Positions 3,143 to 49,460 of a stretch of DNA of 64,000 nucleotides are shown here, in pieces. The first letter of the stretch is position 1. Each line of letters starts with the position of its first letter. The translations under genes and the position numbers were made by a program. The DNA comes from an uncultured Chloroflexia bacterium (lineage in GTDB: Bacteria > Chloroflexota > Limnocylindria > Limnocylindrales > CSP1-4). The stretch spans positions 160,001-224,000 of the forward strand of contig CAVYIM010000007.1 in NCBI GenBank assembly GCA_963768655.1, in the 5' to 3' direction. The notes beneath the pieces were generated by a model. It was not told where the DNA came from, did not search any database, and worked only from the letters and a program-made list of their open reading frames with translations.

Positions 3143-5731
3143 GTGTCTCAAACATTCGAGACGCAGTTCGCAGGACGCACCCTCAGCATCGAGACCGGCA
3201 AGCTGGCCATGCTCGCCGGCGGTGCCGTCACGGTCCGCTTCGGCGACACGATGGTGCTCGGCACCGCAAACCGGGCCGATCCGCGGCCCGGCCTCGACTT
3301 CTTCCCCCTCACGGTCGAGTTCGAAGAGCGCATGTACGCCGCCGGCAAGATCCCGGGCGGTTTCATCAAGCGTGAGTCGCGTCCGTCGGAGCAGGCCATC
3401 CTGGCCTGCCGCCTGACCGACCGCCCGATCCGGCCGCTCTTCCCCGAGGGCTACAAGGACGACATCCAGATCGTGATCACGGTCCTTTCCACGGACCAGG
3501 AGAACCAGACCGACGTCCTCGGCACGTTTGCCGCGTCGTGCGCTCTGACGATCAGCGCCATCCCGTTCCTCGGACCCATCGGCGCCGTCCGTATCGGCCG
3601 CATCGACGGCGAGTTCGTCGTCAATCCGACGATCAGCGACCTCGAGCGCTCCGACATCGACCTCATCGTGTCGGGGACTCGCGACGCGATCATGATGGTC
3701 GAGGCCGGTGCCTCGATCGTCCCCGAAGACGTCATGGCCGACGCCATCCTCTTCGGCCATCGCGCCCTCCAGCCGCTCATCGACATCCAGGATGAGATGC
3801 GCGCGGCCGTCGGCAAGCCCAAGACGGTGGGTTACCTCGAGCCGGGCACCGCTTCGGTCCTCGAGTTCGTCCACAAGGTGAGCGAACGTGGCGCCGAGTT
3901 CGTCGTCCTGGACACCGAGACGACCGGCCGCGACGCCAAGATGGCGGACCTCGTCGAGATCGGCGCAGTGCGTGTCCGCGACGGCGAGATAGTCGACCGC
4001 TTCTCCACCTTCGTGAACCCGGGCCGCACGATCTTCGGCGCCCAGATGCACGGCATCACGGACGCGGACGTGGCCGGCGCCCCGGCCCCGCGCGACGCCG
4101 CGCTGCGTTTCCTCGAGTTCGCCGGCACGAGCAGCCTGATCGGGCACAACGTCGGCTTCGACCTGGGCTTCATCGAGCAGGCGCTCGGCGAACCCGGCAA
4201 GTTCGCCGAGGCGAGCTACTTCGACACTCTGGCCATCGCCCGCGAAGGCTACCCGGATCTCGAGTCGTACAAGCTTGGCGACATCGCCCGCTTCTTCAAT
4301 CTCACGGTCGAGACGGCCCATCGCGGTCTTGCCGACGCCGAGACCACGGCCGCCATTCTGGCCGAGTTCGCCAGGGATTTGCCGCCGCGCATCCAGCTGC
4401 TCGAAGACGCCATCGCCGTCTCCATCCGGGCCAACCGCCAGGAAGGCCAGGACTCGGCGGCCCTGCTCGAAGCCGCACGTCGCCAGGCGCGCGTCAGCAA
4501 GAGCCTCTTCCAGCTCGTCCAGAAGAAGACCGTCCGCAAGCTGATCTTCGACGAGGGCATCCGCATGGATGGCCGCGGCGTCGACGACATTCGCCCGATC
4601 TCCGTTGAGGTCGGCGTGCTGCCACGAGCCCACGGCTCCGGTCTGTTCACGCGCGGCCAGACCCAGGCCCTGACGGTGGCCACGCTGGGTCCCGCTTCGG
4701 ACGTCCAGCGGATCGACACGATCAGCCCCGAGACGGAGAAGCGGTATCTACACCACTACAACATGCCGCCGTACAGCACCGGCGAGAACAAGCCGATGCG
4801 CGGTCCCGGTCGGCGCGAGATCGGTCACGGCCACCTCGCCGAGCGGGCACTGCTGCCGGTCCTGCCGTCGGAGGACGAGTTTCCGTACGTCATCCGCCTC
4901 GTCAGCGAGTGCGTGACCTCGAACGGTTCGACCTCGATGGCCTCGACCTGCGGTTCCAGCCTGGCCCTCATGGACGCCGGCGTGCCGATCAAGGCCGCCG
5001 TCGGCGGCGCCGCGATGGGCCTGATCAGCGAGCCGGACGGACGGTTCGTGATCCTGACCGACATCCTCGGCAAGGAAGACGCCTTCGGCGACATGGATTT
5101 CAAAGTGACCGGCACCCGCGAGGGCGTGACGGCGCTGCAGATGGACATCAAGGTCAAGGGCATCAGCGAGGCGATCATCCGCCAGGGCCTGGAGAAGGCC
5201 CACGCCGCTCGAATGGCGATCCTCGACAAGATGGATGCGGTCATCCCGGCGAGCCGCACGGAGATGAGCAACTTCGCGCCTCGCATCATCACCATCAAGA
5301 TCAATCCCGAGAAGATCCGCGACATCATCGGCAAGGGCGGCTCCGTGATCCGCAAGATCCAGGAGGAGACCGGCACCGAGATCAACGTGGAGGATGACGG
5401 CACGGTCCAGATCGCCGCGGTGTCGGGTGAGAACTCGCGCAAGGCGGTCCAGTGGATCGAGTCGCTCACTCGCGACGTGGAGATCGGCGGCCTGTATCTG
5501 GGCAAGGTGACCCGGATCATGGGCTTCGGCTGCTTCGTGGAAATCCTGCCGGGCAAGGAGGGCCTGGTCCGGATCGGAGAGCTGGCCGACTACCACGTGC
5601 CCACAGTCGAGGACGTGGTTTCAGTCGGCGACGAGGTCATGGTCGTGGTCACCGAGATCGACAGGCAGGGCCGCGTCAATCTCTCCCGCAAGGCCGCGAT
5701 GCAGCGTCATCTGGCCCGCACCGAGAGCTGA
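3143..5731 (+). CDS. pnp: Polynucleotide phosphorylase with internal DEDDh exonuclease domain
   Basis: FFPLTV, KIPGGFIKRE, RREIGHG, SNGSTSMAS, GDMDFKV, KH (IIGKGG) and S1 motifs; insert ~3896-4369 with VLDTETTG / GHNVGFD / HRGLAD. Confidence 0.97.
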   Translation: MSQTFETQFAGRTLSIETGKLAMLAGGAVTVRFGDTMVLGTANRADPRPGLDFFPLTVEFEERMYAAGKIPGGFIKRESRPSEQAILACRLTDRPIRPLFPEGYKDDIQIVITVLSTDQENQTDVLGTFAASCALTISAIPFLGPIGAVRIGRIDGEFVVNPTISDLERSDIDLIVSGTRDAIMMVEAGASIVPEDVMADAILFGHRALQPLIDIQDEMRAAVGKPKTVGYLEPGTASVLEFVHKVSERGAEFVVLDTETTGRDAKMADLVEIGAVRVRDGEIVDRFSTFVNPGRTIFGAQMHGITDADVAGAPAPRDAALRFLEFAGTSSLIGHNVGFDLGFIEQALGEPGKFAEASYFDTLAIAREGYPDLESYKLGDIARFFNLTVETAHRGLADAETTAAILAEFARDLPPRIQLLEDAIAVSIRANRQEGQDSAALLEAARRQARVSKSLFQLVQKKTVRKLIFDEGIRMDGRGVDDIRPISVEVGVLPRAHGSGLFTRGQTQALTVATLGPASDVQRIDTISPETEKRYLHHYNMPPYSTGENKPMRGPGRREIGHGHLAERALLPVLPSEDEFPYVIRLVSECVTSNGSTSMASTCGSSLALMDAGVPIKAAVGGAAMGLISEPDGRFVILTDILGKEDAFGDMDFKVTGTREGVTALQMDIKVKGISEAIIRQGLEKAHAARMAILDKMDAVIPASRTEMSNFAPRIITIKINPEKIRDIIGKGGSVIRKIQEETGTEINVEDDGTVQIAAVSGENSRKAVQWIESLTRDVEIGGLYLGKVTRIMGFGCFVEILPGKEGLVRIGELADYHVPTVEDVVSVGDEVMVVVTEIDRQGRVNLSRKAAMQRHLARTES

Positions 5732-7775: not shown

Positions 7776-9444
7776 ATGCCTGAATCACAGATACCGCTTC
7801 GAATCATCCCCCTCGGAGGCGTGGGGGAGATCGGCAAGAACATGTACGTCTTCGAGTATGGCGACGACATCGTCGTCGTCGACTGTGGACTCATGTTCCC
7901 CGATGAGGAGATGTTCGGGATCGATCTGGTGATCCCCGACGTCACCTACCTGCGCGAGAACCGAGAGAAGGTCCGCGCCTTCCTGATCACTCACGCCCAC
8001 GAGGATCACGTCGGCGGGCTGCCATACGTGCTCCCGTACTTCCCCGGCGTGCCCGTGTATGCGTCAACGCTGGCCCGCGGCCTGCTCGGCATCAAGATCA
8101 AGGAGCACAAGCTCCACAACAACCCGCTCTTGCCCCTGGATCCGGGCGACAACCTCGAGATCGGGCCGTTCCGCGTCGAGCCGTTCCGGATCAGCCACTC
8201 GAATTCCGGACGCGATGGGAATCGCCCTCCACACGCCGATCGGGACGGTCGTCACGACGGGCGACTTCAAGTTCGACCACACGCCGGTCGACGGCCGCCG
8301 GTCCGACTTTGCCATGCTTTCGCGCCTGGGCGAGGACGGCGTGGTCTGCCTGCTCTCAGATTCGACTCGGGCCGAGAGTCCCGGCTACACGCTCTCTGAG
8401 CGGACCGTCGGTGAGACCTTCCGCGAGATCATGGAGCCGCTGGACGGCCGGGTCATCGTGGCCACGTTCGCCAGCAACATCGCCCGCATCCAGCAGGTCA
8501 TCGACGCCGCCGCGACGTTCGACCGCAAGGTCGCGGTCGTGGGCCGCTCCATGGAGCAGAATTTTCGCATCGCGACTGACCTTGGGTACCTGACGTATGC
8601 CCCAGGCCAGATCGTGGGCAAGGATCAGATCGGGTCCACGGCGGCGGACAAGATCGTCATCGCCACGACCGGCGCCCAGGGGGAGCCAATGGCCGGCCTG
8701 GCCCGCATGGCCAACCGCGACCACCGCTTCGTTGAGATCCAGCCGGGCGACACCGTAATCGTCAGCGCCAGCCCGATCCCCGGCAACGAAGAGTATGTGG
8801 CTCGGACCATCGACAACCTCTTCAAGGCCGGCGCCAATGTCTACTACCACACCGTCAAGCACGCCCACGTTTCGGGCCACGCCAGCCAGGAAGAGCTGAA
8901 ACTGATGCTGGGCCTGACCAGGCCGAAGTACTTCATCCCGATTCACGGCGAATTCCGGATGCTTGTCCAGCACGGCCGCCTCGCCGTGGAGACCGGGGTG
9001 GCCCCTGAGAACGTGTTCATCATCGAGAACGGCCAGGCCATCGAGTTCTTCGCGGACGGCACCGCCCGGCGCGCCGCCCCCGTAACCTCCGGCTACGTGC
9101 TCGTGGACGGGCTGTCCGTCGGCGACGTCGGCGAAGTGGTCCTGCGCGACAGGCGGGCGCTCGCCAGCGACGGCATGTTCATCATCGTCGTGACCGTGGA
9201 TAAGCAGACCGGGAAAGTGGTGGCTCGGCCCGAGATCGTGACTCGCGGCTTCATACACGGGAACGAGCGAGACCCGCTCATCGACGGGGCGGTGGAGCAC
9301 ATCATGGCCGCGGTCGAGAGCCCGGGCGATCGGACCAGCGAGGTGGGCCTTCTCAAGAGCCAGATCAAGGACGAAGTGTCGCGGTATCTCTACGAGCAGA
9401 CGCGGCGGCGGCCGCTCGTCTTCCCGGTCGTGGTGGAGGTCTGA
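7776..9444 (+). CDS. rnj: Ribonuclease J, split by one extra A at ~8202 (probable sequencing error)
   Basis: PLGGVGEIGKN and THAHEDH in ORF 7776; TGDFKFD and HVSGHA in ORF 8059; removing one A restores ISHSIPDAMG. Confidence 0.93.
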
Positions 9445-11814
<2,370 letters not shown>

Positions 11815-11818
<4 letters not shown>

Positions 11819-25496: not shown

Positions 25497-27900
25497 CTAC
25501 GTCGCCCGGTTTTCGATCGTGCTCGGGGTCAAGTAGCGCCTGCGATCCGTAATCTCCAGGGGCGTGCCCGTCAGCTCAAGGTCGGCCGTCAGCTTCAGGT
25601 CGCCTGACGAACTCCCCGCCCAGATCCGGACGTGACCCGGCTCGATCACCTGTCGGAACGCTCGATCGAGCAAGCCGAGCTGCTCGCTGGCGAGCCGGAA
25701 GGCGACCGTGCATGCGTCGCCGGGACCCAGCCTGACTCGCTTGAAGCCGCGCAGCTCCTCGATCGGCCTCGTCACGCTCGCCTCCAGGTCGTGAACATAG
25801 AGCTGCACGACCTCGTCGCCTGAACGTTCGCCGACGTTGCGGATGTCGACCCGAACCGTCGTCTCTCCGGCCAGGGTAGGAATGCAGGCTGGGTCGAGCC
25901 GCAGATTCGAGAGCTCGAACCGGGTGTAGGACCGACCGAACCCGAACGGCCAGAGTGGCGTGGCCGGCCCGTCCACGTAGTCGCCGTGCCAGTGGGACAT
26001 GCCACCAGACGCTTTGTGGCGGTAGCAGACCGGCACCTGGCCGACGTGGCGGGGCACGGTGAAGGGAAGCTTGCCGCCTGGATTCTGGTCGCCGAAGAGG
26101 GCACCGACGATGGCTTCCGCGCCCTCGTCACCCGGAGCCCACGCCAGCAGGATGGCCCGGCAGCTTCGGGCCGCCGATTTCGAGCGCCAGCGGTCGACCG
26201 CTCATGACGACCAGCACGACTGGCGTACCGGTCGCGGCGACCGCGTCCAGCAACTCCTGCTGGCGGCCCGGCAGGCCGATGTCGAGCCGGTCGCGCGATT
26301 CGCCGGTCGTGCACGGCATCGAGAAGCCGGATCGTTCGCCCAGGACAAGGACGGCGACTTCGGCACACCGGGCGAGCTCCACGGCCGCCTCGATCTGCGC
26401 CGGCGTGCCGTCGGTCAGGCCACAGCCCTTCTCACAACGGACGTCGGCACCTGGCAATCGATCCCGCAGTGCGTCGAAGACCGTGCGCCGGCTCGCCAGC
26501 TCATCGGTCAGGAGGTTCTCGCCCCGTTCTATGTACTGCCGCCCGAGTGGTTCATCGGCCGCCTCCAGGAGAATCTCGAGTGTCGCCACGTAGCTGTAGT
26601 CGCCGAGCAGCTCGCGGCTGCTGTCGGCCAGGGGACCGATGACTGCGACCGACCGGACGCCGGCCGGCAGCGGCAACAAGTCGCGATTCTCGACGAGCAC
26701 AAGCGAGCGGCCGGCGAGTTCGCGACCCAGCCGACGCTCGTCCTCCGTCGGCCGGAGAAACGCCGAGGACGCCTGCTCATCTACATAGGGATCCTCGAAC
26801 AGCCCGAGTCGGAACTTGGTCGACAGCGTTCGAGCCACTGCTCGATCCAGCAGCGACTCGGGCACGGCCCCGCCGTCCAGCCGCGCGGCCAGAGGCTCAG
26901 CGTATGCCGCGGGCGCCGGGGTCTCGACGTCGACCCCGGCGCGAAGGGCGAGTTCGGCTGCGACGCCAAGGTCCGCCGTCATCCGGTGCTGGGTGACCAG
27001 TTGCTCGATGCCCTCGAAGTCGGCTACGACCGCGCCATCGAAGCCCCATTCGTTGCGGAGGATGCGCGACAGCAGTTCCTCGGACGCGACGCACGGGACG
27101 CCGTCGAGGTCGGTATAGGCGTGCATCACGCTCGCCATGTCCGCCTCCCGCACGGCGGCCTCGAAGGGCAGGAGGAACTCCTCGCGGATCTCTCGCGGCC
27201 CGAGGTGAGCCGGAGCCTGGTTGAGTCCGCCTTCGGGGACCCCATGACCGACCATGTGCTTGCCTGTGGCGACCACCCCGTCTCTCAGATCGCCTCGATC
27301 GACTCCCTGGAGGCCTCGCACGTAGGCACATCCCATCGCCGAGGCGAGATAGGGGTCTTCGCCGAAGGTCTCCTCGATCCGGCCCCAACGCGGGTCGCGA
27401 GCCAGGTCGAGGACCGGCGCCAGTGCCTGCCGCAGCCCGAGTGCCCTCATGCGGCGGCGAATCGAATCGGCGATGGACTGGAGCAGCTCCGGGTCCCACG
27501 CGGCGGCCGCGCCGATGGACTGCTGGAAGCAGGGCCCCGAACGGGCCATCAGGCCGTGAAGCGACTCCTCGTGCAGGATGGCGGGAATGCCCAGGCGCGT
27601 CTCTTCGACCAGGAACCTCTGGATCGCGTTGCCGGCTCGCGCTACGTCGCGGGCGTCCAGGGTTGATGCGCCGGCCAGGCGGGTGATCTGGCCGACTCCG
27701 TACTGGAGCCGCGTGCGGGCGGCGGGCCCGGCGAGTTGGGCGCCATGGAGAACGTCTGCCGCCCAAACCGACACGACCTGCGCCAGCTTTTCCCGACGGG
27801 TCATTCGGCCCAGGAGATCAGCGGTACGGACCTCGATCGGCAGATCGGGATCGCGATACGGCGTGTTCGCCAGTTGTCCGCCGGGAGCGACAGTGCTCAC
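25497..27900 (-). CDS. GH3 beta-glucosidase/xylosidase, split by one extra base at ~26178 (probable sequencing error)
   Basis: RLGIP, RDPRWGRIEETFGEDP, C-terminal Fn3-like GDEVVQLY; removing one A restores LALESAARSCRAILLAWAPG. Confidence 0.9.
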
Positions 27901-35394: not shown

Positions 35395-35552
35395 CGTCGC
35401 CTCCGATGCAGTGCGTGCCGTTCCCCTTATCTTGACGAACCCGGGCGGACGGCTCATCGCTCCGTGGCCGGCGTTGCGGGTGACGCGAGACGTGCCCGGA
35501 CGAGTCGCCGGAGCCGCGCCGACACCACCGACCCCGCGCGCATAAGCGACCG

Positions 35553-35822
35553 ATGCGCGCGTCGTTTCGGCAGCGAAGCATGGGATCGGCGATGAACGAG
35601 CCCGCTACGTGGTGGAGCGGTGCGCATGCCCGTTCTATCCGACAGATGCCGGAGAAGGGGAGCGGGACCTCGTGATCGTTCCTCGGCCCCGATCAACGCG
35701 GAGTGCCACTCGAGGTTGTCGCCGTCGAGACCGAGGGCGGCGATCTGCTGGTCACCCACGCGATGCGATTGAGGGCCAGCTATGGAGAGACGTGCGTGTG
35801 GGTGATGAGATGCCGAGAGTGA
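35553..35822 (+). pseudogene. Frameshifted small toxin-like gene (BrnT/RelE-like)
   Basis: SAAKHGIGDERARYVVE in one frame, shift at ~35678 to FLGPDQRGVPLEVVAVETEGGDLLVTHAMRLR*; no in-frame start; overlaps RHH gene. Confidence 0.55.
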
Positions 35823-36034
35823 AGTCCACGGGCACTTTTCCCAGGAGTGGCCGCCGGCTGTCTGGGGACGATCTCGACCCTTCCTTGAGCGCTGAGCCGG
35901 GTGCGCATTCCCCTCGCATCGAAGCCCGGGTCCCCGAAGCGCTTCATCGCCGCGTCTCGGCGCGCGCCGCCAGCGAAGCCAAAGGCGTGAGCGCCGCATT
36001 GCGGCAGTTGCTCGAGGAGTGCGCGGAGGGCTGA
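35810..36034 (+). CDS. Ribbon-helix-helix (CopG-like) antitoxin candidate
   Basis: PRIEARVPEALHRRVSARAASEAKGVSAALRQLLEE fits the RHH pattern. Confidence 0.6.
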   Translation: MPRVKSTGTFPRSGRRLSGDDLDPSLSAEPGAHSPRIEARVPEALHRRVSARAASEAKGVSAALRQLLEECAEG

Positions 36035-36088
36035 CAGGGACCCAACCGTTGGCGGAGTGGTCGCTGACCTGTCGAGCGGTCGTCTGAC

Positions 36089-36140
36089 GACCATTTCGTG
36101 ACTGGCCATGAATCTTGGTCATCGGTGACCATCTCGTGAC
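36089..36140. repeat. 14-bp direct repeat GACCATYTCGTGAC
   Basis: GACCATTTCGTGAC at 36089-36102 and GACCATCTCGTGAC at 36127-36140. Confidence 0.7.
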
Positions 36141-36343
36141 CAGCCTCTTGGTGGCCGCGCGGTACATCACCGTGGCGTGAGTAGTTCACACCGAACCTGA
36201 ATCGACGGGACTGATCGGGAAGTAGCCCGGTATCATCCTGACATGGACAGAGGGCGAGTAATGGGGGGACGGGGGCGGTCGAAGGCGGCCAAGGACGCTA
36301 AGTCGCTTGTGCCGGCCAAGCTTCTTGGGCATAAGGTCGGGAA

Positions 36344-37096
36344 ATGATCCGCAAGATCCACGGTTTCGTCGTGGCCGCCATCGCCGTTGCTGCGATCGCG
36401 AGCTTCTTGACCGTCTGGGTGCTTGCTTGGACTTACGGCGGGGACGCAACCGGTGGCTTTGAGCGCGCAGGCCACTTCTACATCTGGAATCGCCCCCACA
36501 CCGGCTACCAGGAGGTTTCGGAGACTATCTGGCAGCTGAGCTTGCTCGCGAACCGCACTTTGCCGATCCTGTGGCCTCTGATGCTCCTTGCCGGTGGCTC
36601 TTGGATCGTGGCGACCGAGAACAGGGTCCTCAATGGGACTGCCGCCCGAGAAATCGATAGTCGAGTCAGGTTCGTTAGGCGTTCGGGGCCATTGCTCTGT
36701 TCGCGGCGCCTCTCGGGCTCAAGCGGCCGAGTCTCAGTGTGGGGTCCGCTGTTCCTCGTCGAGGTCTATCCCGCCGGCGTGTTGGTCAAGCCCTGGTTGG
36801 TTCGGCGACACGCAGTTCTTGCGTCGGAGATCCAAGACGTGGTGGTCGGCAAGGAGCGAGGTCATGAATACCTCGACATCCACCACTCCGGTGCGGGCAT
36901 GCCCTCGCCAGTCAGGCTGTGGGAATCGCCTGGCGCTCCCCTAAGCGCGGCGATACGCACGATCGCCCAGGGACCGGCGGCTATGCAGCATCCAATACTG
37001 CCCACGCAGCAGCCCGCCTCCTGGCGACGACTTAGCTTCGCGATCAGGATCAGCCAAGAAGACGATCCGGCTTCTGCCAATCGAGACAAGCCGTAG
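36344..37096 (+). CDS. Hypothetical membrane protein
   Basis: 250-aa ORF, two hydrophobic helices, codon usage looks less GC3-biased than core genes. Confidence 0.65.
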   Translation: MIRKIHGFVVAAIAVAAIASFLTVWVLAWTYGGDATGGFERAGHFYIWNRPHTGYQEVSETIWQLSLLANRTLPILWPLMLLAGGSWIVATENRVLNGTAAREIDSRVRFVRRSGPLLCSRRLSGSSGRVSVWGPLFLVEVYPAGVLVKPWLVRRHAVLASEIQDVVVGKERGHEYLDIHHSGAGMPSPVRLWESPGAPLSAAIRTIAQGPAAMQHPILPTQQPASWRRLSFAIRISQEDDPASANRDKP

Positions 37097-37165
37097 GCCA
37101 TTCTTCCGCAACGGTTGATGCGCTAGTGACCCACCGATGGCGGCTCGACAGACCAGGTTCGCCCG

Positions 37166-37193
37166 AACGGACATAACCTCTCTTATCGGAAGT
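37166..37193 (-). other. dif: dif-like XerC/XerD recombination site
   Basis: Minus strand ACTTCCGATAA-GAGAGG-TTATGTCCGTT: 11-6-11 with ATAA/TTAT core; core genes converge on it. Confidence 0.72.
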
Positions 37194-37371
37194 GCCGAGG
37201 CTAGGCGACGCTCGGGAATTGGCCCATCGACGCGCAGTCGAACCAGAGATCGCCCGGGCACACACCGGCGGCAATGGCAGGTCGCCATCGGCGAAGGAAT
37301 GCGTCAGCGGGCTTGCGCGTGGCGGCCTTCATAGCTGACTGACTTGGAAACGGCTGGCCCGGGGAATCCAG

Positions 37372-37405
37372 GCGGCCCGCCGGCAAAGGGCGCTCGGCGG
37401 GCCGC
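37372..37405. terminator. Perfect 11-bp GC hairpin downstream of the short ncRNA
   Basis: GCGGCCCGCCG (37372-37382) / CGGCGGGCCGC (37395-37405); no U tract. Confidence 0.45.
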
Positions 37406-37434
37406 GAGTGGCGGAGTTGTGGCAGATATGGAAC

Positions 37435-37516
37435 GCCCGGAGGAACCGCGACCCCGCATCGTTCGGCCGATCCGAGAATCGGTCGAGTCGTTCGGTATTT
37501 CGTGGCCCCTCCGGGC
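37435..37516 (-). ncRNA. Candidate short structured RNA (~82 nt), paralog of the 38.6-38.9 kb RNA
   Basis: 5' GCCCGGAGGGGCCACGA pairs with 3' UCGCGGUUCCUCCGGGC; apical UCGACCGAUU-CUCG-GAUCGGCCGA hairpin; promoter directly upstream. Confidence 0.62.
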
Positions 37517-37669
37517 AGGATTGACTGTAGTCGTTGGGCCGCGGCGTGCCAACCGGCTTGTCCACTTTTCCCTGAAGATCGCCGAGGGATGCGGAGTACT
37601 GTCCACGGGCCGTGCACACCGACCGGCGCGACCGACCTGCGTGTCGAAGGCGAACAGAACACCCGTTCT
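37517..37669 (-). promoter_or_regulatory. Sigma70-type promoter, two DnaA-like boxes and a LexA-like box (copy 1)
   Basis: -10 TACAGT 37524-37529; -35 TTGGCA 37547-37552 (17-bp spacer); TTGTCCACT 37558-37566; CTGTCCACG 37599-37607; AGAACACCCGTTCT 37656-37669. Confidence 0.65.
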
Positions 37670-37677
37670 GGTGGCCG

Positions 37678-38463
37678 TCAGGACGGAAGGACGCGTCGCC
37701 GGCGGTGCAGCGTCTTGATGCGAAGCGTCAGCACCAGGCGGAAGGCTTCGAGGAAGATGGCCATGCTCATCTTGGACTGGCCGGCACGACGCTCTTCGAA
37801 CGTGATCGGCACCTCCAAGACGCGCGCGCCCGCGAGGCGAGCCTGGAAGGTTGTCTCGATCTCGAAGGCGTATCCGCCGGCGTGGAGCCGGTCGAGGTCG
37901 ATGGCGCGGAGCACGGAGGCGCGAAAGGCCTTGAAGCCGCCCGTGAGGTCGCGATATGGCATCAGGAGCACGACTGCGGCGAACACGCTGCCACCGAGGC
38001 TGATCAGGCGGCGAAAGATGTTCCAGCGAGGGATCTGCCCGCCCCGGACGTAACGCGACCCAAGGACCAGATCGGCGCGATCCGCCGCCAGCGGCTCTAG
38101 AAGCGCCGGCAGGAACCTGACCGGGTGGCTGAAGTCGGCGTCCATCTGCACGACCACGTCCGCGCCCCGGGCGAGCACGTCGCGGAAGGCGGCCACGTAG
38201 GCCCGTCCCAGCCCCTGCTTGGCCTGGCGGTGCAACACCGCGATCTGTGGGCATTTGCGAGACAGCTCGTCGGCGAGCTCGCCGGTGCCGTCCGGGGAGC
38301 CGTCGTCGACGATGAGCACGTTCGCCTGGGGCACCGTCGCGAGAATGGCATCGGCGATCGGCCCGACGTTCTCGCGTTCGTTGAACGTTGGAACGACAAC
38401 CCAGATGCGGGACGGCGCGGCGGAGATCTGGCTCGGAGTCGCGGACGGGGCGGTGGGCGGCAT
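37678..38463 (-). CDS. Polyprenol monophosphomannose synthase-like GT2
   Basis: VVPTFNERENV, VDDGSPDGT, QMDADFSH, GSRY, DLTGGFK. Confidence 0.92.
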   Translation of the reverse strand: MPPTAPSATPSQISAAPSRIWVVVPTFNERENVGPIADAILATVPQANVLIVDDGSPDGTGELADELSRKCPQIAVLHRQAKQGLGRAYVAAFRDVLARGADVVVQMDADFSHPVRFLPALLEPLAADRADLVLGSRYVRGGQIPRWNIFRRLISLGGSVFAAVVLLMPYRDLTGGFKAFRASVLRAIDLDRLHAGGYAFEIETTFQARLAGARVLEVPITFEERRAGQSKMSMAIFLEAFRLVLTLRIKTLHRRRRVLPS

Positions 38464-38603
38464 CGGCTTCCTGGCTGCGAAAAGGGGTCGCGGCCGAGGA
38501 TACCCTCTGTCTCCCCTACCCTGCTGGCCGCAGCGCGCCGTGCCGGGCCGGACTCGGGTCTCAACGTGGGCCCGCGGGCCGGTTGGGCTTGCTGCCGTCG
38601 GAT

Positions 38604-38887
38604 ACAAAGAAACGCCCGAAGGAACCACTTCGATCGGACTGCGGTTTCGCGCGTACCGGCCGCTTTGACCACCGCAAGCAAGAGGTCCGAGGACTCCTCG
38701 CTCGAACGGCGACCTGCGCTCCGGCCACTGCCGGAACTGCCACCAACCCCTCTACATTCCACCTTCCGCGGCTACGATCTGCGATCCGGGCCGAGAACCG
38801 TTGCGGGCTCCTGGTCTTTCACGTAGATCGGTCACCGTTTCCGTTGAAACCGCTGAGTCGGTGTCGATCTCGCTGGCCCCTTCGGGC
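38604..38887 (-). ncRNA. Candidate long multibranched RNA (~275-285 nt)
   Basis: 14-bp closing stem GCCCGAAGGGGCCA / UGGUUCCUUCGGGC with G-U pairs that work only on the minus strand; several internal helices; U-rich tail GUUUCUUUGU; -10 upstream. Confidence 0.68.
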
Positions 38888-39040
38888 AAGACAGACAATA
38901 GGTCCGGGCCCCCGCTGGGAGAAGTGGCTTATCCACCACTTTCGGTGCCTGGGAAGACAGTTTTGGCAGTTGTCCACTTCCTGCCAACAAGGGTAGGTCG
39001 GCGCGAACCCCTAGTGCGGACGAGTGAGAACGGTTGTTCT
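38888..39040 (-). promoter_or_regulatory. Promoter, two DnaA-like boxes and a LexA-like box (copy 2)
   Basis: -10 TATTGT 38895-38900; TTATCCACC 38929-38937; TTGTCCACT 38970-38978; AGAACGGTTGTTCT 39027-39040; same offsets as copy 1. Confidence 0.65.
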
Positions 39041-39100
39041 AGTACTCCCCCGCCCTGCCGGGTCCGTCCGCGGGCCTTTGACGCGCTTCCCAGTGGACCA

Positions 39101-40441
39101 TCAGGCGTCCTCGGACGCGGCGCCGGCGGGGGTTCCGTTGTCGGCTCGGAGCAATTCGCGGTAGCGCGCGGCGACTGCCTTCAGCTCGCCCGCCAGCGGC
39201 GGGCTGACACGTCCCCGGACGCGCACGTCGAAGGACCGATAGTCGAGATCCACGGTGCCACGCTCGCGGATGCGGGCGATCAGCTCCCCGGCGCGGTATG
39301 GGATCGCCACGTCCACGTCCACCCAGAGCGACGCCAGCAGGGCGGACAGCTCGGCCCTCAGCGTCTCGAGGCCGTATCCGGTCACGGCCGAGATGAGGAC
39401 CGTGCCCGCGATCGCCGGCGCAGGCGTGTCGCCGTCGCGAGCCGCCGCCTCGATCAGGTCGGCCTTGTTGAACGCCACGAGGCGCGGCTTGTCGCCAGCA
39501 CCGAGCTCCTCGAGCACGGTCTGGACGGTCGCGCGATGCTCGGCGAAGTGGCGGTCCGAGGCGTCGACGATCTCGAGCAGGACGTCGGCGCGTGTGACCT
39601 CCTCGAGCGTCGCCCGGAATGCGTCGACGAGCTGATGGGGCAGCTTGTGGATGAAGCCCACGGTGTCAGTGACGATCGCGGTCTGGCCTTCGCCCAGCTT
39701 GACCTGGCGGGACGTCGGATCGACGGTCGCGAACAGCCGGTCCTCGGCCTTGACGACCTCCTGGCCGACGAGCGCGTTCAGCAGCGTTGACTTGCCGGCG
39801 TTGGTGTAGCCGACGATGGCGACCGTCGGGATGAGCCTCCGGTCGCGCGCGCGGGTCGCCGTGCGGCGCTGCTCGGCCACCTGGTCGACGCGCTCCTTGA
39901 GCTTCTTGATCCGTTCACGCACCAGGCGCCGGTCGGTTTCGAGCTGCGATTCGCCGGGGCCCCTCGTGCCGATGCCGCCGCCGGTGCGCGAGAGGTGCGT
40001 CCACATCCGAGTCAGGCGCGGCAGCTGGTATTCGAGCTGCGCCAGCTCCACCTGGAGGCGGCCTTCGTGCGTCTGGGCGTGCAGGGCGAAGATGTCCAGG
40101 ATCAGCCGCGATCGGTCGATCACCTTGGTCCTGACGGCTTCCTCGAGGGCGCGCTGCTGGGCGGGTGACAGCTCGTCGTCGGTGATCAGGAGCGTGTAGC
40201 CGGTCTCTGATCGGGCGGCCACCAGCTCGTCGACCTTGCCCTTGCCGACGTAGAAGTTGGGGTCGACATGGCGGCGGTTCTGCCACTCGGCGCCGACAAC
40301 CTCGGCGCCGGCGGTGTCGGACAGGCTGGCCAGCTCCGCGATCGACTCCTCCGCCGTCCAGCCGGGATCGTCGCCGGTGTCGACCGCGACGAGAAAGGCG
40401 CGCTCCACCGGCGCGGTCAGATCGATCATGTTCCTGGTCAT
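39101..40441 (-). CDS. hflX: GTPase HflX
   Basis: [36 protein letters not shown]. Confidence 0.97.
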
Positions 40442-40631
40442 CACGGGCAGGATAGCCGAACGGCCGGCTGGCACGGTGCGGCTGAACGGCGGCCGGCCGA
40501 TGGCGACCGGCCCCGACGGCGGCGACCGGTGCGCCCGCCCGGCGCGAGCCTATACTCCGTCAGCTGGCTGCGTCCCCAGCACCGAGGTCCGTCACACCCC
40601 TCGGCGATCGGCACAAGGAGGAGAACAGCAG

Positions 40632-40994
40632 ATGGCGGCCCGGACCGTGCGCGACTTCCAGGTTGGATTCGACATCGCGCCACTTGTGGATGCGTGGGCG
40701 CATGCGAATCACTATGGCTTCCGTGGCGTCTCGCCCGACGGGACCCGCACCTACCAACGCGGCAACGGATTCCTTACGGGCGCCATGCCCATGACGGTCC
40801 GTCAGGCCGGCCCGGCCGTTCACCTGGAAGCCTGGATCCACGCCACGCTGCTTGCGCGCATCTGCGCCGTCTTCCTCATCCCGAGCGACATGGGCATCGA
40901 GTCGGGCGGTGTGAGGGGCGTCCTGCCGCGGTCGATGGCGCGCGGATCGGTCAACAACCTGCTCGCGCAGCTCGGCCAGCCGCCGATCGCATAG
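40632..40994 (+). CDS. Hypothetical protein
   Basis: AGGAGG RBS, 120-aa ORF between miaA and hflX on the opposite strand. Confidence 0.7.
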   Translation: MAARTVRDFQVGFDIAPLVDAWAHANHYGFRGVSPDGTRTYQRGNGFLTGAMPMTVRQAGPAVHLEAWIHATLLARICAVFLIPSDMGIESGGVRGVLPRSMARGSVNNLLAQLGQPPIA

Positions 40995-41063
40995 TCGCGG
41001 GCCGCCGGCGGGCGACGGGCCTTGAGCGGCGAGGTCGGCGACCACACCCGGGTCGGGCGTGCG

Positions 41064-49183: not shown

Positions 49184-49264
49184 CTAGCTCCTCGCTCCTG
49201 TCCTCGATCGTTGCCACGACTTGGGATTAGCGGAACGGGTCGCCGGACGGCGTCCGCCCGCCTA

Positions 49265-49420
49265 TTAGCTCTCGGTCTCGTCGGTCCGCGGCTTCCGCTT
49301 CGGCTTCCACACCTCGACGTTGGTGGGGGGCTCCAGCATGGGCTGGATCTGGGGGGTCTTCTTCCCAGCGTCCTTGGGCTTCTTCTTTTCTTCACGGTGC
49401 GGGCGGTCTCGGCTCGCCAT
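49265..49420 (-). CDS. Small basic hypothetical protein (51 aa)
   Basis: GGAGG RBS; MASRDRPHREEKKKPK...; between tgt and recA. Confidence 0.6.
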   Translation of the reverse strand: MASRDRPHREEKKKPKDAGKKTPQIQPMLEPPTNVEVWKPKRKPRTDETES

Positions 49421-49460
49421 CGGGTGCGCCTCCGCGTTCCACAGGCTACTGGTGGGCTCT

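Follow-up and report, generated by a model that had tools for sequence, protein, structure and literature searches.

The nearest described system to the one considered here is, by analogy, CcnA of Caulobacter crescentus, a 182-nt RNA from a free-standing non-coding RNA (ncRNA) gene that lies inside the origin of replication and is driven from a CtrA box; its single-stranded loops are described as pairing with the ctrA and gcrA mRNAs, and DnaA boxes are reported in the locus (PMC8959179). Here we analyse a 64-kb stretch of DNA (the window) from an uncultured member of the Limnocylindria, a class of the Chloroflexota, in which an earlier note, made from the sequence alone, had pointed to twin RNA genes beside dif with a common upstream layout of DnaA-like and LexA-like motifs. 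Judged by their conservation and predicted fold, these genes belong to one family of small, highly structured RNAs that is conserved across the class Limnocylindria and hitherto undescribed. Like CcnA, they appear to be free-standing ncRNA genes at a replication landmark, with the box of a master cell-cycle or replication regulator in the promoter. They differ from it in that they lie beside a dif-like site, carry DnaA-type boxes upstream and are predicted to be almost fully double-stranded rods, and no sequence relation to CcnA was detected in Rfam searches of the window.

Three other groups of systems invite comparison. DnaA-regulated promoters and clusters of DnaA boxes are known from dnaA and nrdAB and from datA and DARS, respectively. 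In these promoters, as in those studied here, a high-affinity box is accompanied by weaker ones that share its orientation and helical phase, next to the -35 element; the known cases, however, control protein genes or act as pure DNA elements. DARS and the distinction between high- and low-affinity boxes are described in PMC4285127. In a literature search judged by title and abstract, no report was found of a small-RNA (sRNA) family with dedicated DnaA-box promoters, and the literature mentioning Limnocylindria was, among the items listed, ecological or genomic. 6S RNA, Ms1 and Y RNAs are rod-like regulatory RNAs that bind proteins. They share with the RNAs described here 5' and 3' ends paired in a conserved stem, a rod shape, and a promoter and terminator of their own, whereas the Limnocylindria RNAs are much shorter (82 nt), lack a central bubble and have no Rfam match even at E values up to 10; no Ro/Rsr gene was found among the Pfam-scanned open reading frames (ORFs) of the window. 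The small RNAs tisAB/IstR, 6C RNA and DinR are reportedly associated with LexA. In Mycobacterium tuberculosis, LexA chromatin immunoprecipitation peaks are reported at MTS1082 and MTS2823, with binding but without obvious induction (PMC3381160). The likeness lies in a GAAC-N4-GTTC-type SOS box that adjoins a gene for a small RNA; the box described here differs in that it occurs in one clade only, ~150 bp ahead of the RNA start and with fixed spacing to the other boxes, and there is no toxin ORF.

Two predicted RNA genes and their relatives

Both genes lie on the minus strand downstream of hflX, with a family-2 glycosyltransferase (GT2) gene between them; the short-RNA cassette is referred to as locus A and the long-RNA cassette as locus B. 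Their features are as follows, with offsets counted upstream from the first G of each RNA.

37423..37434, minus strand: U-rich tail of the short RNA, GUUCCAUAUCUG, after the closing stem; weaker than the family consensus GUUUynUUGU
37435..37516, minus strand: short RNA, 82 nt; predicted rod-like hairpin with a 13-bp closing stem containing tandem G.U pairs, a CGAACG/CGAACG repeat in its interior and a tetraloop at the tip
37524..37552, minus strand: predicted short-RNA promoter, TTGGCA, 17 nt, TACAGT (the latter at 37524-37529); 9/12 matches in a promoter scan
37558..37566, plus strand: proximal DnaA-box-like 9-mer of locus A, TTGTCCACT; offset 42, 8/9 to TTGTCCACA
37599..37607, plus strand: distal DnaA-box-like 9-mer of locus A, CTGTCCACG; offset 83, 41 bp from the proximal box
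37656..37669, no strand assigned: LexA-like palindrome of locus A, AGAACACCCGTTCT in plus-strand reading; AGAAC-N4-GTTCT, offset 140 (-152 to -140)
38602..38613, minus strand: U-rich tail of the long RNA, GUUUCUUUGUAU; terminator-like match in the scan, and part of the tail logo
38614..38887, minus strand: long RNA, 274 nt; the closing stem of the short form with a conserved multi-branched interior, in the window's clade only
38895..38900, minus strand: long-RNA -10 hexamer TATTGT; the -35 region is weak (TTCTCC)
38929..38937, plus strand: proximal DnaA-box-like 9-mer of locus B, TTATCCACC; offset 42, 8/9 to TTATCCACA
38970..38978, plus strand: distal DnaA-box-like 9-mer of locus B, TTGTCCACT; offset 83, 8/9 to TTGTCCACA
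39027..39040, no strand assigned: LexA-like palindrome of locus B, AGAACGGTTGTTCT in plus-strand reading; offset 140 (-152 to -140)

All offsets and coordinates given in the earlier note proved correct on re-reading. The 5' G residues, at 37516 in locus A and 38887 in locus B, are 1371 bp apart, and both RNAs begin with GCCCG(G/A)AGGGGCCA and finish with GGUUCCU(C/U)CGGGC, a G-C/A-U swap distinguishing the two. The predicted folds of both were better than those of all 200 shuffles, with -48.6 kcal/mol and a z-score of -3.85 for the short RNA and a z-score of -3.32 for the long one. The upstream stretches of the two loci (181 nt, ungapped) have 86/181 identical columns, clustered in motif blocks. 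When the stretch of locus A was slid over 127,640 windows of the 64 kb on both strands as a control (mean 50.6, s.d. 6.0), locus B was the best non-self match, and an unrelated coding stretch at 26132-26312 reached 82/181 with scattered matches. Because this unrelated stretch scores 82 against the partner's 86, raw identity is not decisive and was set aside as proof of kinship; what decides is the grouping of the identical columns into blocks, and that these blocks are conserved in 80 related loci.

These relatives were collected with an HflX query against species-representative genomes, which yielded 80 loci at 73-96% identity, nearly all titled as Limnocylindria, Limnocylindrales or Chloroflexota metagenome-assembled genomes. 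Every copy was located through the hflX anchor, and the counts given here are those of hflX neighbourhoods. The window's own clade (the close clade) consists of the loci L001-L018, with 86-96% HflX identity. Across the 80 loci and the window, the RNA 5' motif GCYYGRAGGGGC occurs 114 times on the hflX strand vs twice on the other strand, and 110/114 copies have the matching 3' arm. At least one copy (range 1-3) is present in 64/70 hflX loci having at least 1500 nt of downstream sequence; among loci with at least 3000 nt, four have none, 24 have one, 35 have two and two have three. Most copies are 78-88 nt long (87 copies), and the others are 118 nt (four), 145 nt (two), 190 nt (one) or 272-277 nt (16), the last form being confined to the window's own clade. 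The 82-nt RNA of the window is thus, by this distribution, the ordinary form of the family and the 274-nt RNA a clade-specific elaboration. Two copies within one genome are usually of different sequence types.

Comparative folding supports a common architecture. Folded singly, each copy forms one long imperfect hairpin with a tetraloop cap, and 12/12 RNAs from relatives fold as single rods with z-scores of -3.2 to -8.0. A covariance model (CM; R1) was built from 82 distinct short RNAs; it scores the window's short RNA at 69.5 bits on its own strand vs 37.7 on the opposite strand, and its matches in the 1.25 Mb scanned fall in cassettes only, the RNA strand scoring about twice as high as the opposite one. 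When 88 distinct short RNAs were aligned to the model, a fit that in itself inflates pairing, 94.7% of cells were paired vs 82.7% in shuffles and 253 cells showed a compensatory change on both sides vs 88 in shuffles; the covariation score was 0.379 vs at most 0.091 for slid partners, with 0/500 shuffles as high, and changes on both sides were seen in 15/25 pairs. The basal 13-bp stem is near-invariant, its two G.U pairs being kept in 88/88 sequences and never swapped to G-C or A-U, while its position 6 covaries (A-U 65, G-U 12, G-C 8). The interior varies by type, with the same short word on each arm (CGAACG in the window, CUAG or GGACC elsewhere), and these repeated words give two-fold symmetric duplex segments with A.A mismatches. 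For the long form, a 17-sequence alignment yielded 78 predicted pairs in 12 helices, with 95.6% of cells paired, 17 pairs compensatory and a covariation score of 0.212 vs at most 0.093 when slid; this alignment also contains one- and two-base indels, which argue against coding. The conserved, strand-specific fold with compensatory changes is what would be expected of a structured ncRNA gene.

No described family or element accounted for these RNAs. Rfam 15 gave no match in the 64-kb window at gathering thresholds, and at E values up to 10 the region 36800-39300 gave nothing better than E 1.6, all far below gathering; a c-di-GMP-II match at 37599-37646 (16.9 bits) was dismissed as noise. In 10 related loci with 19 copies the sole Rfam match was an unrelated c-di-GMP-II riboswitch, and positions 3900-4700 of the related locus L023 returned nothing under E 7.9, so a known RNA family was rejected for want of any relevant match at either threshold. 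No tRNA or tmRNA gene was found. A blastn search of the short-RNA locus (37420-37680) against plasmids and of the long-RNA locus (38600-39050) against phages returned no match, and a mobile or dispersed repeat was rejected on this ground together with the absence of CM matches off the cassettes in the 1.25 Mb. A small ORF or toxin was likewise rejected, as no single frame has a complete ORF of at least 30 aa in more than 37/84 cassettes.

Promoter layout and upstream motifs

When 113 distinct upstream regions are aligned at the first G, their logo has T at -13 in 102, A at -12 in 103 and T at -8 in 107, the three middle positions varying, and T at -1 in 111/113. The -35 element is only partly conserved, as a weak TTG at -37 to -35 (T at -36 in 90/113). 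This pattern has the form of a sigma-70-type promoter, defined by a TAnnnT -10 some 7 nt ahead of the start and a TTGnnn -35 placed 17-18 nt before that; the -10 is strong here and the -35 weak, and transcription probably starts at the G of GCCCGRAGGGGC. At the other end, the tail logo of 107 distinct copies reads G-U-U-U-y-n-U-U-G-U, with T at +2, +3, +4, +8 and +10 in 82-105/107, and conservation ends ~16 nt downstream. Since a U-rich tract follows the closing stem, the stem would double as an intrinsic terminator, and the G+C-rich stem followed by a U tract has the expected form of one; unusually for a terminator, this stem encloses the entire RNA, and the tail of the window's short RNA is weak. 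RNAalifold predicted 0 pairs for the upstream 115 nt of 57 copies, on which ground the upstream region was rejected as part of the structured RNA and is taken to work as DNA. The sequence between the motifs has no information content in the 113-region logo.

Two GTGGA-containing boxes dominate this upstream DNA, the proximal one at -51 to -48 in 104/113 regions and the distal one at -93 to -89 in 108/113, with a box-to-box spacing of 41-42 bp in 99/100. The published high-affinity DnaA boxes listed in Table 1 of PMC4285127 include TTATCCACA (Escherichia coli, Bacillus subtilis) and TTGTCCACA (M. tuberculosis, Streptomyces coelicolor). At the distal position, 44/108 regions have a 9-mer exactly complementary to TTGTCCACA, and most others are one base off (8/9). 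Read on the other strand, the proximal 9-mer is most often TTATCCACG (61), TTATCCACC (24) or TTGTCCACG (11), so that 96/104 proximal sites are TTATCCAC(G/C) or TTGTCCACG, 8/9 to a DnaA box. By sequence, the boxes thus conform to the DnaA-box motif TT(A/G)TCCACA. The 8-mer GTGGAYAA is largely a property of the cassettes, with 184 occurrences inside them vs 11 outside (both strands, 1.25 Mb).

A third, weaker box is present in 56/78 distal-box cassettes outside the window's clade, exactly 11 bp further upstream in 56/56, which gives the layout 9-mer, 2-bp gap, 9-mer in one orientation. The same geometry characterizes the low-affinity DnaA arrays of E. coli oriC. DnaA arrays are described as lying in one orientation and nucleating at high-affinity boxes, with helical phasing important (PMC4285127). 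In the window, the third-box positions are degenerate (TGTGCACGG and TGTTGGCAG, 6/9 each). Close-clade long-form cassettes have a conserved CCCGTGTTGGCrG at about -110 to -100, where other clades have the third box, and the distal box of the window is enclosed by an inverted repeat, TTGGCAG and CTGCCAA.

The LexA-like palindrome has a narrower distribution. GAAC-N4-GTTC is exact at 37657 and 39028, and in the close clade the palindrome lies at -151 to -154 from the RNA start, being exact in 16/18 long-form cassettes (the other two with one mismatch) and in 5/16 short-form cassettes (nine more with one mismatch). The motif is the core of the mycobacterial and Bacillus LexA consensus, given as TCGAAC(N4)GTTCGA in PMC3381160, and by sequence the palindrome matches the LexA (SOS) box consensus, so that a LexA reading is reasonable. 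Five exact sites are present in the window; one, AGAACACCCGTTC, is located upstream of ruvB, a classical SOS gene, and ends 6 nt before a TATGAT -10. lexA is not among the Pfam-scanned genes of the window. By inspection, no conserved promoter is found beside the palindrome in the window that an operator could overlap or adjoin. A candidate for a second promoter overlapped by LexA is a TACAAT-like hexamer that, again by inspection, follows the LexA-like box in some relatives and is missing from the window. Judged from its distribution, the palindrome is a clade-specific addition and not part of the conserved core of the cassette.

What the earlier note had claimed is borne out in part by these comparisons. 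The two unannotated minus-strand RNA genes with a common promoter layout and a covarying closing stem stand, and the Rfam check it had proposed for both RNAs found no family. Its match of the boxes to DnaA boxes holds for the distal site at 9/9 in 44/108 and at 8/9 in most others, and the LexA-like motif it placed at the ruvB promoter is there. The motifs and their spacing are, as it had supposed, under selection, and of the outcomes it had named as refuting it, identity with an Rfam family or dispersed repeat was not encountered. Three of its claims needed revision. The DnaA-like part of its combined cassette is conserved, whereas the LexA-like box does not hold as a general part (0/80 elsewhere). 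The twin pair consists of two genes as claimed, not as a one-off twin but as members of a class-wide family with 1-3 copies per genome; and the long/short pairing, present in the window, is clade-specific and not a general feature. Its proposal that the pair responds both to DNA damage and to the state of replication near the terminus is regarded here as hypothetical.

Neighbouring genes and the dif-like site

By Pfam, the minus-strand gene order is ruvB, tgt, recA, recX, rny, ymdB, a PHP protein, miaB, miaA, hflX, locus B, GT2 and locus A. The features adjoining the cassettes are listed here.

37166..37193, minus strand: dif-like site, ACTTCCGATAA-GAGAGG-TTATGTCCG; 247 nt downstream of the short RNA and not part of the cassette
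37678..38463, minus strand: GT2 gene (Pfam PF00535, 4.3e-27); the start ATG at 38463 is inferred
39101..40474, minus strand: hflX (Pfam GTP-bdg_N, GTP-bdg_M, MMR_HSR1); conserved upstream neighbour and anchor of the 80 loci

Whether the RNAs are leaders of the genes that follow them was assessed from the next downstream feature of 110 cassettes, which is a same-strand gene in 68, another cassette in 16, a convergent gene in 16 and nothing in 10. The same-strand gene is often ~60-170 nt away, with a median of ~62 nt when the longest ORF is taken. Pfam scans of the next gene, where it lay no more than 400 nt away (62 genes), gave the following classes.

PLP-dependent enzymes: 14/62
GT2: 10/62, all after long forms and all in the close clade
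AT3-SGNH acyltransferases: 6/62
Rce1-like proteases: 5/62
Metallo-beta-lactamase fold: 4/62
AAA_33 kinases (convergent): 3/62
PMT_2: 2/62
GtrA: 2/62
Usp (convergent): 2/62
Six singletons: 6/62
No Pfam match: 8/62

These genes represent 15 different Pfam families or domain combinations. The GT2 orthologues that follow the long RNA in 10 related loci are 251-311 aa long. A constant position upstream of related same-strand genes, as expected of a riboswitch or cis leader, was not seen among the 110 cassettes and 62 genes. As the downstream genes are heterogeneous and the window's short RNA faces dif and not a gene, independent RNA genes are favoured; a cis leader was rejected as the principal explanation, the downstream genes being heterogeneous and often convergent, and was kept as a minor alternative.

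The dif-like site, beside which the earlier note had placed the RNA genes, lies 247 nt from the short RNA and is conserved. It is the single match in the window vs 0.07 expected, and its core pattern occurs once, on the hflX strand, in 46/80 loci, 0.1 to about 7 kb downstream of the cassettes; the arms, ACTTCCGATAA and TTATGTCyG, are conserved there, and the 6-bp spacer varies. By sequence, the site fits the definition of dif (the XerCD site) as about 28 bp with two inverted arms and a 6-bp spacer (PMC3025954). GC skew shows no clear reversal at 37 kb and neither shows nor excludes a terminus; it was set aside as a test of terminus position, and since it is uninformative at the 64-kb scale, the terminus would be placed here by the dif-like site alone. 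Beside the site, ~1.7 kb at 35458-37170 are lower in G+C (0.60-0.64) and contain neither a Pfam match nor an ORF that follows the codon bias of the genome; they may be foreign or non-coding DNA at dif. In two relatives, HicB-like antitoxin and PIN domain genes lie between the short RNA and the dif-like site (L006 12996-13394 and L007 11648-12040); such toxin-antitoxin-type genes are consistent with a variable region at dif.

Several further observations concern the surroundings. A 590-nt gap separates miaA from hflX (40475-41063), the place of hfq in many bacteria; no ORF with a Pfam match was found in this gap, and hfq there was rejected accordingly. In distant clades (L019-L080, about 9350-9960, plus strand), a ~200-aa protein is encoded between hflX and the first cassette. 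It has no Pfam match, and the look-alikes found in an atlas search weakly suggest a glycolipid-binding family, at a level of recognition too low to be useful; absent from the window's clade, it was dropped as a protein partner and regarded as unrelated to RNA. Just upstream of hflX in the relative L019 (7831-7915, minus strand), there is a c-di-GMP-II-GAG riboswitch scoring 72 bits (gathering 40). Upstream of recA in the window, a lysine- and proline-rich small ORF ends at ~49266. On the plus strand of the window, ftsK is apparently split into two overlapping ORFs at 9445-11157 and 11141-11818, the first with FtsK_alpha and the N-terminal part of FtsK_SpoIIIE and the second with the C-terminal end of FtsK_SpoIIIE and FtsK_gamma, reflecting either a frameshift or an assembly error. 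Also on the plus strand, 3143-5731 encode an 862-aa polynucleotide phosphorylase of unusual architecture, with an RNase_T (DEDD exonuclease) domain at residues 254-406 between RNase PH-family matches.

Proposed mechanism, alternatives and significance

Based on these data, we favour, with a confidence somewhat above even, a reading in which the cassettes are free-standing, class-wide small-RNA genes whose promoters are controlled from two putative DnaA-type sites and whose RNA acts in trans. The comparisons show a transcript that, as predicted, folds in its entirety into one rod-like hairpin, with the 5' and 3' ends pairing in the near-invariant 13-bp stem that contains two invariant G.U pairs; in the window's clade, one copy has gained a 190-nt branched interior to become the long form. 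In the proposed mechanism, transcription would be governed by two sites in the DNA that face the same side of the helix, the near-perfect distal TTGTCCACA and the weaker proximal TTATCCACG/C abutting the weak -35. A near-perfect distal site, a consistently imperfect site abutting a weak -35 and a separation of four helical turns would be the expected features of an activator-dependent promoter. DnaA is the most likely reader; nucleation may take place at the distal box, with activation of the promoter from the proximal box. The LexA-type palindrome, 60 bp further upstream in the window's clade, may add a second, SOS-linked input. The RNA probably acts in trans, either through a protein that reads the invariant stem or through base pairing of the variable interior. 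A bolder version, which we consider rather unlikely, would have a dedicated DnaA-sensing RNA module beside the terminus, in which ATP-DnaA on the perfect distal box and its low-affinity neighbour 11 bp away reaches the weaker box four turns downstream and switches on the rod RNAs, a common protein partner reads the G.U stem, and a LexA site and an elaborated paralogue of 274 nt have been gained in one clade.

Several observations weigh against the favoured reading. DnaA is named as the reader from motif identity only, and the proximal box never has the consensus final base, being CGTGGATAA in 61 and GGTGGATAA in 24 of 104. The proximal box is absent from 9/113 upstream regions and the distal one from five, and at least one copy (L060 9999) retains the RNA without boxes. 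As to the SOS-linked input, the palindrome is exact in 0/80 cassettes outside the close clade; at -152, it is too far upstream for repression by occlusion; and recA has no exact GAAC-N4-GTTC upstream (window 49184-49460, minus strand). The 68/110 copies with a same-strand gene next would be compatible with a cis role for some of them, and the inflation of pairing by the model fit and the restriction of the counts to hflX neighbourhoods, both mentioned above, belong on the same side.

These points bear on the alternatives to different degrees. The RNA genes could be real and the GTGGAYAA boxes read by another protein, for example a response regulator on direct repeats with an 11-bp period; this is unlikely. 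Direct repeats 11 bp apart together with a site abutting a weak -35 are typical of OmpR/PhoB-type activators, and the cassettes have both, the former in 56/56. The consistent departure of the proximal box from the DnaA consensus at its last base also fits such a regulator, as does the lack of a dnaA gene or origin in the window or the loci by Pfam scans. The 9-mer/2-bp gap/9-mer geometry, on the other hand, is that of the DnaA arrays of E. coli oriC, and we know of no other regulator with this recognition sequence; moreover, the 9-mers equal published DnaA boxes at 9/9 (44 distal sites) or 8/9 (PMC4285127). We regard as quite unlikely that the hairpins are cis-acting leaders or attenuators of the downstream gene, such as GT2, in which the stem and U tract would terminate transcription unless a factor or a local 5' hairpin (GCCC-GAAG-GGGC) intervened. 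The invariant 5' arm can indeed be seen to fold on itself, a same-strand gene at a median of ~62 nt is next in 68/110 cassettes, and GT2 follows the long form in 10/62 scanned genes of the close clade and in the window. However, a convergent gene (16), another cassette (16) or nothing (10) lies downstream of the other copies, in the window, what comes after the short RNA is the dif-like site and no gene, the 62 downstream genes are functionally unrelated, and the G-C/A-U covariation supports the long-range stem.

That the functional entity is instead the DNA, with terminus-proximal clusters of DnaA-binding sites that titrate or remodel DnaA like E. coli datA or DARS and transcripts of secondary importance, appears improbable. 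Two or three phased DnaA-type boxes per unit, one to three units per genome and the adjoining conserved dif-like site would suit this view; yet conservation is stronger in the transcribed part than in the boxes and extends to the promoter and terminator elements, and the strand-specific G.U pairs and compensatory changes are explained only by selection on RNA. It is hardly credible that the similarity arose by chance or by local duplication in the recent past, or that it marks a mobile element, a dispersed repeat or a type I toxin-antitoxin locus under LexA control that encodes a small ORF; this group of explanations is largely refuted. In its favour, an unrelated window matched the locus A stretch at 82/181 where the partner reached 86, and LexA-controlled small toxin loci are described in E. 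coli (PMC2577331). The layout is nonetheless found in 64/70 related loci at fixed spacing with inter-motif sequence devoid of information content; the CM has no match off the cassettes in 1.25 Mb, and plasmids and phages gave no match; no frame holds a complete ORF of at least 30 aa in more than 37/84 cassettes, and the RNA lengths differ by non-multiples of three.

If the favoured reading of free-standing, DnaA-controlled small-RNA genes is true, these RNAs would constitute an undescribed class-wide family, and its hosts would belong to an uncultured Chloroflexota lineage that is among the most abundant ones in soil and freshwater. The covariance model and the dif consensus for the class are usable in annotating Limnocylindria genomes, and the tandem G.U pairs in the invariant closing stem suggest an RNA-binding partner. 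The cassettes would also be the first case found of small-RNA promoters built around phased DnaA boxes, and would directly link the replication initiator to RNA-based regulation outside the model Proteobacteria and Firmicutes. Were the bolder version true, they would represent the first regulon of sRNAs under direct control of the replication initiator, one that signals initiation potential, and in one clade also DNA damage, to a downstream process.

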